In this document: positions 45,106 to 50,601 of the stretch, one piece after another
Layout of the letters: every line of letters starts with the position of its first letter
Numbering within the stretch: the first letter of the stretch is position 1
Assembly (NCBI GenBank): GCA_041649175.1
Contig: JBAZNR010000001.1
Location: 588,956-652,955, forward strand
Length of the DNA stretch: 64,000 nucleotides
Direction: 5' to 3'
Origin: Candidatus Omnitrophota bacterium
Lineage (GTDB): Bacteria > Omnitrophota > Gorgyraeia > Zapsychrales > JBAZNR01
Translations under genes and position numbers: made by a program
The notes under the pieces: generated by a model
What the model saw: the letters and a program-made list of their open reading frames with translations, nothing else
Told to the model about the DNA's origin: nothing
The model's database searches: none

Positions 45106-45193
45106 TGTGTATCCTCCTCAATAATGATGATCAATGGTGATCAACGGAAATATTTTTATCTTTCAAGAACTTTTTTAGAAGAAAAGAACTTAA

Positions 45194-45232
45194 AATAAAA
45201 AAATCTCATCCGCGCGAAACAAGCGATGAGAC
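45194..45232 (-). terminator. intrinsic-terminator-like hairpin in the leader of pilin C (read on - strand: GTCTCATC...GATGAGA + U-run)
   Basis: Stem TCTCATC/GATGAGA with an adjacent 10-nt A-run on the + strand (a U-run on the - strand transcript), about 90 nt upstream of the start codon. Conserved with 50279-50313. Confidence 0.5.
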
Positions 45233-45635
45233 TTTTCTTGTTGGCAGCACGGCTTTCCTTGTGGTTTTTATTTCGCTTGCGCGAATTAAAAACCAACCGC
45301 AAACAAGGAACCTTTGGCTTTGTGCCCCATCCTTACGGATGGTTTACCCCGTCAGATAAAAAACTAACGTGATAAATCCTATTTTTCTTCGGGATTTATC
45401 TTTTTCAACATATCACATTTCTTAGAGAAAGTATAGCAGGTAAAAAACAAAATTCAATTGATGATGGGTGAAAAACAAGAAATGAGGATAGCGTTTTCTT
45501 TGCTTTTCAAAGGCAGTATATATATTTTCCTTAACATGCTATTGTGAAACGGGTTATAAAGAATTAAATCGAGAAAGGTTGGGAGCGGAAAAATAGAAAC
45601 GCCACATCTTTTTAAATCTTTTTAGATTTTTTCGC

Positions 45636-48209
45636 TTAACTCAATCCTTGGTAGTGGTGAGTCCAATTTTGCTCTGTGAAGGGTATTTCCAAAAGCGCCG
45701 CCTGGTAAAGCCCCATATAATCTCCGGGAGGACGAATGGTATCGGTGCGGTAGCGTTCTTGGTAAATCCTTGTTGGTGAGCTTGCCCAGCTCAATGAATC
45801 CGATTGAGGGTAAGTGCTACGGCAATACGAGGGCGGTGTAATTCTTTGGCTAGCTGAGTATCCTGATTGATCACATTCTCGCCAATTGGTACCGTCCACT
45901 GGGCCGCTTGCCGGGAATTCATTGCTTAGCTCGATATTAGCGCCGATAATGGTTGCGTAAACGCGCGACCACTGGCTTGGTGCCGTATTAATATCTCCAA
46001 CATTAGCATGAAAGCCCCATTGTTCGAGATGGTCAATACTTCGAACATATTTTCCAACTAATGAAATGTCATAATAGATCGTCTCACCGTTTACCATGGG
46101 CTGCAGCTCTCCGTTGACAAGTTTTTTAACACGGTTAGGCATTCGTTGGGCCGCCGGGACAGAGCTGTTTCCGTCGAAATCATGGTCATAAACCCAGTTA
46201 TATTGTCCCGCAACAAAACCGATGTTATTAGCTGGGACCGTAACACTGCCATATGTGCGTGAATAAGGATATTCCGGATGCCTTTGTGGATAGGGCAAGC
46301 TTGTGGGATAGTTAAATCCATCGGAAGCGAGATAAATCTTATTGGAAACAATAGACGCGCTTGGCGCCCAATCGGCCTCATCATCAGGGTGATTATAAGT
46401 TCCTTTTAAAATAAGGTTTCCTTCGACGATGGAAGTAAGCCCTCCAACAGGAATTTTCTTGGCATTGGCCAAGGCGATACTTTCCTCGGAGTAAAGAAGT
46501 CCATTGCTGGGAAGCCACTTCCCGATATTACCCGCAATTTGTTCACAGCGCATAAGATTGCCAATATCAATTTCAACAGCGGTATTCATCTTCCCACTCT
46601 TGTGGTTTACGAACATTTTGGGCGTGAAAATAGTAAAGTTTCCGTCGTCTTCGCAAGCGGCTGTGGTTCCTCCTGGGTTTTCCGGATCTTCAAGGTACGA
46701 CAAAGTAGCGCGCTGAACGCCGTTCACGGTAACAATGATCTGTCCCAGATCATTGGACTCGATGGACATTCCTTCGTTAGAATCTTTAGCAATAGCAATG
46801 AGAGCGTCTGTATCAATGTTCGGAGGAGTGATCATGGGAGATTCAAACTGAACGATAGGACGGCTGGAATCTTCATCATAAAGTCCGGTGATCACGCCTT
46901 CTTCTAGGTTGATATCAGCGGGAAAAGATTCGATATAGTTGTTCCAAGCGTCAGTTTGTTCTTTAGCATTCGTAAGATCGATAGCCATTTTAGTATCGCC
47001 CTCATTGTACTTACGGTAATACCTAAATTCATCGTAGGTGTGGCCTACAAAACGAGGCGGAATTTTTATCCCATTAATTTTAATGGCTGAGTCATAAAAA
47101 GATGCTTGATTATCCGGATTTAAATGTGAGGCGCAATTGGAACCCACCAAACAATTAACATTTTTTTGCATATAAACATAACTTTGGTCTCCGTCATCAA
47201 TGTTCCATGGACCGGCTTGCGGAGCAGTCGCAGGATTTCCCCACGGATAAATAGGTTCGCGAGTTCCGTCAGGGTCTAAAGGTGTCGCGTCCCAAGGAAC
47301 AAATTTACATGACGATGAACCGGCCGTAGGAGTGTTGCAAGTCGGCGAGGAACCGTCATAATTTCCTCCGTCTTCCACAAGATTGGACATCAAAAGCCCA
47401 GCACGAGCACCTTCGTAATAGCCGTGAATACCGTTACGATAGTCTTTTGCAATGGCGGAATATGCGGGGTCTTCAGGATTGTACGGACTTGGAAAATTAT
47501 TGGGCCTTTTAAACGGCCAGAACATCCAAGGGTAGCGCCCCACAATGGCTAGATCGTTGGGATGGATCTCGCGCCATTCATAGTTCATTCTGACATTGCC
47601 GGAAGCGCTAAGTTCGTTAACGTTGTTCATGACCGCGCTGGCGCGAAATTCGATATTGCCATTAGCATGGATCTTTCCCCCTCGAGCATCCCAGAGGGTT
47701 CCGCTAAAAAGAACATTGCCCGGATAGAATCCAAGATAATTATAAAGCGAAGTTCCGGCGATCTTATTGATAAATAATTTTGTTTGGCTTCCCAAAGTGC
47801 CTTGTGACAGCATATAAACTTCGTCACCGTAACGGTACACTTTAACTTGGAAACCGTCAGAAGCATTCCCTAGGACATAATTGCCGTTCTCAATGCGCGC
47901 GCCGGTAACTTGCGCTTCAGGCGGTGTCGCCAACGTACTTAAAGCGAAACTGCCGTCGTTTGCGACAGCGTGAGTGAGGAAAGATTGAGTTGTTCCCCAA
48001 TTTTGTTTTTTGATCTCCAGTGACGCGTATTCAATACCTTTGATGGCATTATATTCGGCACGAGTTTCATTGTATAAAGCGCGGGCTTGGCTACTGGAAT
48101 TAGTTGAGCGAATGAAGACAGCAACGCTTAATCCCACCAAAAGAGTAAAGACAGGGTAGGCGATAAGCGATAGAAAAATGCCTTTTTGTGATCGAAGTCT
48201 TTTAAGCAT
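45636..48209 (-). CDS. large (857 aa) PilX-N-like minor-pilin-domain protein, putative pilus-associated adhesin (copy B)
   Basis: N-terminus KGIFLSLIAYPVFTLLVGLSV...AEYNAIKGIEYASLE. Paralogue of 40297-43113. Starts 33 bp after the upstream pilin gene, with a GGAGAG RBS. Confidence 0.55.
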   Translation of the reverse strand: MLKRLRSQKGIFLSLIAYPVFTLLVGLSVAVFIRSTNSSSQARALYNETRAEYNAIKGIEYASLEIKKQNWGTTQSFLTHAVANDGSFALSTLATPPEAQVTGARIENGNYVLGNASDGFQVKVYRYGDEVYMLSQGTLGSQTKLFINKIAGTSLYNYLGFYPGNVLFSGTLWDARGGKIHANGNIEFRASAVMNNVNELSASGNVRMNYEWREIHPNDLAIVGRYPWMFWPFKRPNNFPSPYNPEDPAYSAIAKDYRNGIHGYYEGARAGLLMSNLVEDGGNYDGSSPTCNTPTAGSSSCKFVPWDATPLDPDGTREPIYPWGNPATAPQAGPWNIDDGDQSYVYMQKNVNCLVGSNCASHLNPDNQASFYDSAIKINGIKIPPRFVGHTYDEFRYYRKYNEGDTKMAIDLTNAKEQTDAWNNYIESFPADINLEEGVITGLYDEDSSRPIVQFESPMITPPNIDTDALIAIAKDSNEGMSIESNDLGQIIVTVNGVQRATLSYLEDPENPGGTTAACEDDGNFTIFTPKMFVNHKSGKMNTAVEIDIGNLMRCEQIAGNIGKWLPSNGLLYSEESIALANAKKIPVGGLTSIVEGNLILKGTYNHPDDEADWAPSASIVSNKIYLASDGFNYPTSLPYPQRHPEYPYSRTYGSVTVPANNIGFVAGQYNWVYDHDFDGNSSVPAAQRMPNRVKKLVNGELQPMVNGETIYYDISLVGKYVRSIDHLEQWGFHANVGDINTAPSQWSRVYATIIGANIELSNEFPASGPVDGTNWRECDQSGYSASQRITPPSYCRSTYPQSDSLSWASSPTRIYQERYRTDTIRPPGDYMGLYQAALLEIPFTEQNWTHHYQGLS

Positions 48210-50231: not shown

Positions 50232-50278
50232 CGCTATTTCTCCTTTTAGGATTATTCTAGTACGTTTTTTCGTTTTCA

Positions 50279-50313
50279 CAAAAAAAATCTCATCTGTTTT
50301 AAGAGATGAGACG
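50279..50313 (-). terminator. intrinsic-terminator-like hairpin in the leader of pilin A
   Basis: TCTCATCT/AGATGAGA stem with an adjacent A-run (a U-run on the - strand), about 50-80 nt upstream of the start codon. Conserved with 45194-45232. Confidence 0.5.
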
Positions 50314-50601
50314 GCCAAACAAAAATAGCTTGTCTTGTTGGCGGCTAGGCTGTCCTAAATGCTGGACCCTATAGCTTTGCGTCCCATCCTTACGGCCTCT
50401 TTGCTCATCACACGAGGTTCCCTGGGAAAACTTTCAGCAGGAAAATGGTTTGCCTTTTTCAACGTTTTACTGTTCTTCTTTGTACTTGCGTAAAGTATAA
50501 CATACAAAAACAGTTTTTCAATTGACAGAAGGCTTAAAATTGCACAGAATAATAGCGTTTTCTTTATTGTTTTTTAACCGATTAGAAAATATTGTAGATA
50601 G

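Follow-up and report, generated by a model that had tools for sequence, protein, structure and literature searches.

Two pilin modules and their leaders

The window analysed here, a 64-kb stretch of DNA from an uncultured Omnitrophota bacterium, carries on its minus strand two unusual surface-protein modules, A and C, each of which encodes a giant pilin-like protein and a partner of 850–940 aa. The subject of this study is the pair of leaders of these modules, that is, the minus-strand intergenic regions 5′ of the 662-aa pilin A and the 657-aa pilin C. Covariance-model and terminator predictions indicate that both leaders are almost certainly riboswitches of the cyclic diguanylate class I (c-di-GMP-I, also GEMM-I) with terminator platforms. 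The parts of module A, followed by those of module C, are as follows.

50542..50565, minus strand: conserved box AAAGAAAACGCTATTATTCTGTGC 5′ of the −35 hexamer, a candidate operator or UP-like element (alignment with related leaders)
50494..50521, minus strand: promoter, TTGAAA (50521-50516), 16-nt spacer, extended −10 TGtTATACT (50502-50494) (scan, 10/12 with TG)
50337..50463, minus strand: predicted c-di-GMP-I aptamer (RF01051, 36.0 bits, plus extended reading)
50463-50460 and 50340-50337, minus strand: P1 of aptamer A, GUUG with CAAC
50454-50445 and 50382-50374, minus strand: junction of aptamer A, GGCAAACCAU and ACGCAAAGC
50444-50396, minus strand: insertion of 49 nt with two hairpins, inside the P1b 5′ strand of aptamer A
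50395-50383, minus strand: CC-GUAA-GGAUGGG of aptamer A
50373-50340, minus strand: P2 of aptamer A
50314..50342, minus strand: hairpin sequestering the P1 3′ strand (GCCAACAAGA with UUUUGUUUGGC), between aptamer and terminator (minimum free energy (MFE) folds)
50280..50313, minus strand: intrinsic terminator, CGUCUCAUCU (50313-50304), loop, AGAUGAGA (50295-50288), U8 (50287-50280)
50254..50281, minus strand: doubtful promoter-like TTGTGA-16-TAGAAT (9/12 consensus; not conserved in leader C)
48243..50246, minus strand: gene A, Shine–Dalgarno (SD) sequence AAAGGAG (50246-50240), ATG at 50231, 662-aa pilin-like protein
45636-48209, minus strand: partner of gene A, 857 aa

45488..45501, minus strand: conserved box AAAGAAAACGCTAT (alignment)
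45430..45457, minus strand: promoter TTGAAT-16-TGcTATACT (scan, 9/12 with TG; conserved)
45239..45410, minus strand: predicted c-di-GMP-I aptamer (RF01051, 44.3 bits)
45410-45406 and 45243-45239, minus strand: P1 of aptamer C, UGUUG with CAACA
45399-45372 and 45369-45350, minus strand: inserted hairpins of aptamer C (MFE fold)
45349-45316, minus strand: core of aptamer C, GGGUAAACCAUCC-GUAA-GGAUGGGGCACAAAGCC
45315-45243, minus strand: long P2 of aptamer C
45197..45232, minus strand: intrinsic terminator, GUCUCAUCGC (45232-45223), loop containing CUUGUU, GCGGAUGAGA (45213-45204), U7 (45203-45197)
43132..45119, minus strand: gene C, SD GAGGAGG (45119-45113), ATG at 45105, 657-aa pilin-like protein with C-terminal PT-HINT
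40297-43113, minus strand: partner of gene C, 938 aa

The first-pass annotation had noted three ordered sequence blocks common to the two intergenic regions, and all three were confirmed there in their plus-strand positions. Read on the minus strand, the terminator block TCTCATC-N4-16-GATGAGATTTTT matched twice in the window (45199-45231 and 50283-50311) and in 0 of 100 dinucleotide-preserving shuffles. The block CCGTAAGGATGGGRCRCAAAGC, which is the reverse complement of the annotated GCTTTG.G.CCCATCCTTACGG, also had two window matches with up to 3 mismatches (45317-45338 and 50374-50395; chance expectation 0), and it is followed in leaders A and C by GCCAACAAGA, the reverse complement of CTTGTTGGC. 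The likeness of the two leaders reaches further 5′ than had been described, and includes a promoter TTGAAW-16-TGnTATACT, the box AAAGAAAACGCTAT, and GTTGAAAAAG.

The annotation had placed a rho-independent terminator 50–100 nt before each start codon, in agreement with U-runs that end approximately 48 nt (A) and 91 nt (C) before the start. The terminator of leader A was called independently by a terminator scan (50312..50287, 9 pairs, then U8), and RNAfold gave it −8.9 to −12 kcal/mol; the terminator of leader C, at −9.2 kcal/mol, is followed by U7.

Both leaders carry c-di-GMP-I aptamers

Class membership was judged by a covariance-model score at or above the Rfam gathering score of RF01051, 35 bits. 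The Rfam scan of the whole window, a check that the first-pass annotation had suggested, returned two aptamers above this score, both on the minus strand: 45358-45240 upstream of pilin C (44.3 bits) and 50415-50337 upstream of pilin A (36.0 bits). No further RF01051 match above the gathering threshold was found elsewhere in the window. These matches bear out the proposal of a leader attenuator with a riboswitch expression platform and shared regulation of both modules, and they make the accompanying suggestions of protein-mediated antitermination or an RNA thermometer superfluous. Since the leaders combine a catalogued riboswitch class with a terminator, both pilin modules are most likely controlled by the second messenger c-di-GMP.

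The blocks that lie 5′ of the hairpin thereby receive a structural meaning, as the core (P1b tetraloop hairpin and junction) and the 3′ end of the aptamer. GCTTTG.G.CCCATCCTTACGG is the reverse complement of the P1b tip, its 3′ strand and the junction (CC-GUAA-GGAUGGG-RCRCAAAGC), and CTTGTTGGC.GC is the reverse complement of the aptamer 3′ end and the P1 3′ strand (GC.GCC-AACAAG). Of the three helices that meet at the junction (P1, P1b and P2), P1b and P2 appear in the cmscan structure lines, and all three are present in the MFE fold of leader C. P1 is formed by GUUG/CAAC, with compensatory changes to UUUG/CAAA and AGUUG/CAACU in two of the related loci described below (L055 and L042, respectively).

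The ligand-contacting positions, which we take from the Vc2 crystal structures to be G20, A47 and C92 in Vc2 numbering, have equivalents in both leaders. In the cmscan alignment of leader C, these are the G before the GU pair, the A after the AC pair, and the CC in GCUGCC. In leader A, they are found in AAAAAG-G-CAAACC...GC-A-AAGC...GCCGCC, an assignment that depends on the extended reading of this aptamer (see below) being right. Specificity for cyclic GMP-AMP (cGAMP; GEMM-Ib, with A at position 20) was considered and rejected, as leader C has G at this position and leader A has G in its better-supported extended reading; only the local Rfam alignment of leader A puts an A there. P1b is capped by a GUAA tetraloop in both leaders. 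Docking of a GNRA tetraloop into a P2 receptor is a trait of “type 1” GEMM-I members, not of all members. The consensus receptor columns of P2, CUAA...UAU, are deleted in the cmscan alignments of leader C and of the related L001, and leader A has UCCAGC...UAGGA at the place of the tetraloop receptor.

A promoter–riboswitch–terminator cassette precedes pilin genes

Protein searches for related loci yielded little. A GTDB-genome search with the alignment of the 857-aa and 938-aa paralogues found no related locus, and a word-index search with the 857-aa protein gave 3 matches in a collection of 5.8 billion proteins, namely the window's own protein and two relatives. Therefore, a DNA pattern of the 22-nt aptamer core was used instead, and it retrieved 51 metagenome and 20 GTDB-genome loci (labelled L001 and so on); 11 of the 20 genome loci bear an Omnitrophota label.

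Two Logan contigs, L001 and L002, encode the proteins closest to the 857-aa partner. L001 is syntenic with the window, having the PAC2, YjeF_N and HhH-GPD genes on one side and pilin-Hint genes on the other, and its corresponding intergenic region contains an RF01051 match of 53.2 bits. L002 is truncated by the contig edge; what remains there is the 3′ end of the aptamer, the CCAAC and a terminator like that of the window, again ahead of a pilin-like ORF. Nine relatives beyond L001 scored between 40 and 61 bits (40.6–61.1 bits for the relatives).

The whole cassette is common to the window leaders and L001, L025, L033/L071, L042, L043 and L055. It consists of the upstream box, CTGTCAATTGAAAAAC...TGnTATACTT, GUUGAAAAAGGUAAAC, the aptamer, CCAAC, and the terminator UCUCAUCC/GGAUGAGA, and its members share GUUGAAAAAGGYAAAC. 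The hexamers and spacing of the promoter are the same in 8 related leaders. A pilin-like open reading frame (ORF) stands 3′ of the cassette in all of these loci wherever the contig continues. The comparison with homologous loci that the annotation had called for shows a cassette kept in related contigs, with covariation in P1. Among approximately 53 non-redundant hits of the aptamer subtype, at least 18 precede type IV pilin-like genes and three more precede Flp-type pilins.

In L004, L030 and L047, the aptamer subtype stands before 62-aa Flp/Tad-type pilins (...EDGPTAVEYAVMLALIIVV...) on GC-rich contigs and is followed by no terminator; these aptamers probably exert translational control. A separate observation concerns the box of approximately 25 nt, AAAGAAAACGCTAYTATTCTGTGC(Y)ATTTT followed by CTGTCAATTGAAAA(−35), which is kept in eight leaders (window A and C, L001, L025, L033, L042, L043 and L055) and is a candidate transcription-factor site acting on top of the riboswitch.

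Conservation of the cassette also bears on the origin of the pilin A transcript. The first-pass annotation had offered TTGTGA-16-TAGAAT (50281-50254) as a promoter downstream of the hairpin. If this weak promoter were the source of pilin A, the terminator of leader A would be effectively constitutive, serving to insulate the gene or to end a short riboswitch RNA, and the contribution of the riboswitch would be small or nil. The promoter-like match is present, relatives with pilins of approximately 130 aa do have an 11/12 promoter 15–20 nt past the terminator (L063, L029 and the second copy in L035), and C. difficile has orphan class I riboswitches with no gene behind them. However, the match in leader A reaches only 9/12, such matches are no commoner in the region than in shuffles (24 vs 18.0 ± 4.2), its −35 hexamer overlaps the U-run, and leader C, L001 and L033 have no equivalent. 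In addition, the upstream promoter, aptamer and terminator are kept as one unit before pilin genes, which would be hard to explain if this unit did not feed them. We therefore regard the downstream promoter as a highly improbable main source of the transcript; a weak or minor second promoter before pilin A is possible.

In the relatives, the near-consensus promoter after the terminator is TTGACA-17-TAAAAT or GATAAT (11/12; L063 4874-4902, L029 384-356), and further loci of this type are the second copy in L035, L061, L065, L014 and L070, all Omnitrophota with pilin genes of approximately 130 aa. A further leader of approximately 150 nt precedes the pilin gene in those loci, so that riboswitch-gated read-through crosses the second promoter.

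The two aptamers are insertion variants

In close relatives, the aptamer is contiguous, and both window copies carry insertions. In leader C, the inserted hairpins lie between the P1 5′ strand UGUUG and the junction GGGGUAAACC. The MFE fold of this leader holds P1, both inserted hairpins, P1b, P2 and the terminator, with z = −6.5 against shuffles. L014 and L029 share the layout of leader C, including the conserved AUCACGUUAG...CURACGGGGUAAACC, and the first inserted helix is wholly different in sequence (CUACCCC/GGGGUGG in L014 and L029 vs AUAAAUCC/GGAUUUAU).

Aptamer A can be read in two ways. The local Rfam alignment of 79 nt uses the degenerate nearby GCAAAGAGGCC, which results in three non-canonical P1b pairs and an A at G20. 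We rejected this alignment in favor of an extended reading of 127 nt (50463-50337), in which the insertion sits between GGCAAACCAU and CC-GUAA-GG, and in which AAAAAGGCAAACCAU and a P1b of CCAU/AUGG plus CC/GG are restored. The extended reading has a free energy of −31.8 kcal/mol, compared with −23.6 kcal/mol for the local reading (8.2 kcal/mol better), and is close to the unconstrained MFE. Without the insert, the 5′ half of leader A is the same as L001 at 46 of 51 positions. Related leaders have non-homologous hairpins where leader A has the hairpin that sequesters its P1 3′ strand.

The insertion raises the question of decay, in which P1b has been destroyed, aptamer A no longer binds c-di-GMP, the terminator is a fixed attenuator, and only leader C works. 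The score of 36.0 bits against a threshold of 35 is consistent with decay, as are the non-canonical P1b pairs and the A at G20 of the Rfam alignment, and the fold of the whole leader is not above shuffles (z = −1.4). Against this stand the P1b and AAAAAGGCAAACCAU restored by the extended reading at a gain of 8 kcal/mol, the intact junction and P1 flanks, and the match to L001 after removal of the insert. Moreover, L056 (Omnitrophota), which has a pilin gene downstream, carries a two-hairpin insertion of unrelated sequence at the same site (130-nt cmscan match, 43.5 bits), and L019 carries a three-hairpin insertion there (177-nt cmscan match, 48.1 bits). Since both pass Rfam when aligned across the insertion, the layout appears to be a maintained variant, and we judge decay of aptamer A to be very unlikely.

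Natural c-di-GMP-I aptamers with two or three extra hairpins are thus found at L056 1202-1331, L019 3728-3904, L014 7370-7456 and L029 448-537. The extra hairpins lie inside the P1b 5′ strand in L056 and L019, and between the P1 5′ strand and the junction in L014, L029 and L056. In L029, an upstream CCCCGUUAG is complementary to CUAACGGGG at the start of the aptamer.

Terminator pairing points to a probable OFF switch

The aptamer and the terminator share no nucleotides, and the aptamer helices and terminator coexist in the full-length MFE folds of leader C, L001, L033, L042, L055 and L056. An OFF switch of this kind needs an antiterminator, and the sole recurring complementarity is that of the terminator 5′ strand with GGAUGGG(RC) of the aptamer, i.e. 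the P1b 3′ strand and the first bases of the junction. From the absence of shared sequence and from this pairing, we infer that the leaders are probably OFF switches.

The pairing would form a helix of 10 bp in leader A (CGUCUCAUCU with GGAUGGGACG, 50389-50380) and of 8 bp in leader C (the terminator 5′ strand with GAUGGGGC of the aptamer), and the longest antiterminator helix runs into the ligand-binding junction in 11 cases. Among 35 non-redundant terminators associated with riboswitches, 21 hold in their 5′ strand a 7-mer that can pair with GGAUGGG along its whole length, and no 3′ strand does; of 384 further terminator-like hairpins taken from these contigs and the window, 19 have such a 7-mer (Fisher p ~1e-15). 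The terminator 5′ strands vary (UCUCAUC, CCCAUUC, CCUAUUC, UCCUGUCC, CCCGUUC and CCCAUC), and all of the changes keep the pairing with the invariant G's. In alignments anchored on terminator geometry, pairing to GGAUGGG reached 69% in register 0 and 62% in register −1, as against 36–47% in the others. The partners of the 5′ strands in the terminator stem covary freely (96% of cells paired, with double changes in all 8 pairs). In transcripts that stop short of the terminator 3′ strand, the antiterminator fold is 0–3.5 kcal/mol from the MFE in all 10 pilin-group leaders examined, and it is itself the MFE of the truncated transcript of leader A, whose P1b is weakened by the insertion.

The switch would work as follows. 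Transcription would begin at the conserved extended −10 promoter, and the nascent leader would fold into the aptamer, with P1, the P1b hairpin bearing the GUAA tetraloop, and P2; the independent intrinsic terminator would follow 7 nt (C) or approximately 25 nt (A) 3′ of the P1 3′ strand. In the ligand-free state, the terminator 5′ strand would nucleate on the open junction and invade P1b to form the antiterminator, and RNA polymerase would read into the pilin gene and the 850–940-aa partner. When c-di-GMP is bound, GGAUGGG would be locked in P1b and the junction, the terminator would form, and termination approximately 50–90 nt before the start codon would turn the pilin module off. For the direction, namely that c-di-GMP leads to termination, we consider OFF fairly probable, and we hold with moderate confidence the complete statement that transcriptional c-di-GMP-I riboswitches of the OFF type precede both pilin modules.

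The opposite direction would have the same c-di-GMP-I riboswitches act as ON switches, in which ligand binding suppresses the terminator, either sterically, through a “tug-of-war” exerted by the aptamer or an adjacent hairpin, or through an unrecognised antiterminator, so that high c-di-GMP induces the pilins. There is precedent for this: c-di-GMP induces the type IV pili of C. difficile via the riboswitch Cdi-2-4 upstream of pilA1, and the class I riboswitch Bc2 is ON (PMC4933901). The terminators here are weak (−9 to −12 kcal/mol), and weak terminators tolerate longer spacers in tug-of-war designs. Furthermore, the loop CUUGUU of the leader C terminator is complementary to the P1 3′ flank AACAAG, which would allow some P1-linked alternative pairing. 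However, the aptamer and terminator have no overlap and are formed side by side in the MFE folds, whereas they overlap in the characterised ON GEMM switches (pilM and Bc2), and the only complementarity enriched across relatives, that of the terminator 5′ strand with the P1b 3′ strand, gives OFF logic. The tug-of-war has been shown for spacers of 0–4 nt only. As the spacer is 7 nt in leader C (45238-45232) and approximately 25 nt, including a hairpin, in leader A, this mechanism was set aside. Overall, we find an ON switch unlikely.

An overlap of aptamer and terminator of the ON type is seen in L015, L058 and the second copy in L038, and the two designs can thus be distinguished. In L015 and L058 (approximately 23 nt past the core pattern) and in the second aptamer of L038, the 3′ end of the aptamer itself serves as the terminator 5′ strand (GGGCUGCCG / CCGGGUUGCC). 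The gene downstream of L015 and L058 encodes a response regulator.

Several points weigh against our OFF interpretation. The aptamer strand is fixed by the search pattern, so that the variation in the antiterminator is one-sided and is not true covariation, and the related leaders are not independent of one another phylogenetically. A similar signal would arise if the terminator had originated long ago as a copy of the P1b hairpin and had since changed by transitions only, via G-U intermediates. P1b is local and stable, and its invasion by a distant strand with G-U pairs is unfavoured in most relatives of the contiguous type, where the MFE keeps P1b; L001 and L033 carry a second strand like the terminator 5′ strand that could still form a terminator. 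Leader A is only 1 bit above the threshold, with a poor P1b and an A at G20 in the local alignment, and its function depends on the extended reading. Finally, in the systems characterised so far c-di-GMP usually turns type IV pili on, as at C. difficile pilA1 (a class II riboswitch).

Because the aptamer strand is invariant by selection, a pair-count shuffle control is uninformative for the antiterminator, and the z-scores were only modest when the terminator 5′ strand was shuffled by mononucleotides. Support for the antiterminator comes from the control terminators of the same contigs and from the slid registers. The one usable aptamer whose P1b 3′ strand differs is the second copy in L016 (GGGUGGG). 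Its terminator contains UCACCC, which pairs over 6 bp; this is suggestive, not significant. On the side of an OFF switch, class I c-di-GMP riboswitches are uniformly OFF in C. difficile (PMC6200980).

As the two copies are insertion variants with P1b helices of different stability, their thresholds probably differ. We speculate that leader A (free-energy difference 0) is biased more to read-through than leader C (+3.5), and that the two modules may respond at different c-di-GMP levels. A tentative, broader model is that of a lineage-specific Omnitrophota cassette (operator-like box, extended −10, c-di-GMP-I aptamer and terminator) placed before pilin modules, including giant HINT-bearing ones. 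Here, the switching helix would be the P1b 3′ strand and junction rather than P1, and hairpin insertions would tune the c-di-GMP threshold of each copy, so that the modules are expressed at different c-di-GMP levels; this is possible, and we rate it as doubtful in its entirety. The interval from the stop of the 857-aa gene (45636) to the leader C promoter (45460-45635, minus strand) has no predicted terminator. Module A transcripts could therefore run into riboswitch C and be gated there too.

Comparison with known c-di-GMP riboswitches

The type example of RF01051 is Vc2 of Vibrio cholerae, and the original description of GEMM reportedly counted pili among its gene classes. The window leaders resemble GEMM-I members in the three helices, the GNRA-type P1b tetraloop, the junction GGYAAAC...GRCRCAAAGC...GCYRCC, and their location as the 5′ leaders of pilus genes. 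They differ from the usual members in the 49 nt in the P1b 5′ strand of leader A, the approximately 50 nt between the P1 5′ strand and junction of leader C, and the alignment of leader C without the canonical 11-nt tetraloop-receptor columns of P2. Unlike the type example, they belong to an uncultured Omnitrophota bacterium.

The 3′3′-cGAMP riboswitch of Geobacter pilM (GEMM-Ib) has a homologous aptamer fold and a pilus context; in contrast to the window leaders, it is ON and its terminator overlaps the aptamer. The specificity of pilM depends on A at position 20. Cdi-2-4 of C. difficile resembles the window leaders in being a c-di-GMP riboswitch whose terminator platform stands immediately before a type IV pilin gene (pilA1); unlike them, it has a class II aptamer and is experimentally ON.

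The closest parallel in design is Cd1 (Cdi-1-3) of the C. difficile flagellar operon, which has the same aptamer class and a separate, coexisting terminator. Cd1 is an OFF switch whose independent terminator can coexist with the folded aptamer, whereas pilM is ON with mutually exclusive structures (PMC9262584). The antiterminator of Cd1 is formed by an aptamer strand with the terminator 5′ strand (PMC9262584). The switching strand of Cd1 is the P1 3′ strand, whereas the complementarity enriched in the window leaders involves the P1b 3′ strand and junction; the target of Cd1 is flagella, and that of the window leaders is pilin modules, with OFF as the probable direction.

The class I riboswitches Bc1 and Bc2 and the tug-of-war design offer further contrasts. 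Bc2 (ON) terminates at approximately 121 nt, within or next to the aptamer (PMC4933901). Bc1 of Bacillus thuringiensis has a long platform with a dual terminator and was unresponsive to c-di-GMP in vitro (PMC11218506); more than one terminator-type strand is also found in L001 and L033, which have two strands like the terminator 5′ strand, whereas the window leaders have a single terminator. In “tug-of-war” riboswitches, spacers of 0–4 nt give ON logic (bioRxiv 10.64898/2026.06.17.733018). Their aptamer and terminator share no sequence, as in the window leaders, where the spacers are 7 to approximately 25 nt.

The riboswitch class itself is catalogued and detected by the standard Rfam model, and the pilus context has long been associated with it. 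What is mildly new is the promoter–riboswitch–terminator cassette found Omnitrophota-wide before pilin modules, including giant HINT-bearing ones, together with the two insertion architectures and the P1b-directed complementarity of the terminator. We found no paper on riboswitch regulation in Omnitrophota, and the papers holding both words concern ComFB proteins, which are receptors of cyclic dinucleotides (c-di-NMP).

The general picture of c-di-GMP riboswitches is unchanged by these leaders. They point to a concrete input signal, c-di-GMP, for the two surface-protein modules in a phylum whose biology is known almost only from genomes, and the recurrence of the cassette upstream of pilin genes in related genomes offers a testable approach to the question of when the cells make pili. 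They also provide natural examples of GEMM-I aptamers that carry large hairpin insertions, either within P1b or ahead of the junction. If functional, the pairing between the terminator 5′ strand and the P1b 3′ strand would be an expression-platform design unlike the P1-based one of Cd1.

Regulated genes and genomic surroundings

Pilins A and C have class III signal-like N-termini (KG|LSLTELL and LG|FSLVEV, respectively). Both giant pilins are full of Cys-rich repeats, CG(D/N)GxC...E....C..DC, and their N-terminal ~230 aa are 34% identical. The 857-aa and 938-aa partners are paralogous (39% identity) with an N-terminal membrane helix, and neither has a Pfam match. A protein identical to the 857-aa partner belongs to a Candidatus Omnitrophota MAG. 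Residues 513–640 of pilin C form a Pretoxin-HINT / Hint autoprocessing domain (PF07591, E = 1.4e-15). At L001 7841-9982, a 364-aa pilin combines N_methyl with Hint, and the next gene encodes a second Hint protein. Such a pilin-Hint fusion is unusual and may release or ligate C-terminal cargo.

A simple motif search found no GGDEF or EAL motif among the window ORFs. The window does encode a 678-aa protein (32810-34846, plus strand) whose N-terminal PilZ domain scores 26.4 bits against a cut-off of 22.5; another region shows weak similarity to glycosyl hydrolase 76. As a protein receptor for c-di-GMP, it suggests that c-di-GMP signalling is used in this genome.

Two other regulatory elements were observed in the window. 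A PyrR binding-site attenuator (RF00515, 11781-11888, plus strand; 58.5 bits, gathering score 54) lies upstream of ORFs 12422-14646, which are presumably pyrimidine biosynthesis genes. A perfect 12-bp GC-rich palindrome, GGCGCCCCGACA...TGTCGGGGCGCC (40253-40279), with T-runs on both strands, constitutes a bidirectional terminator between the 938-aa gene and a convergent era-like GTPase gene.

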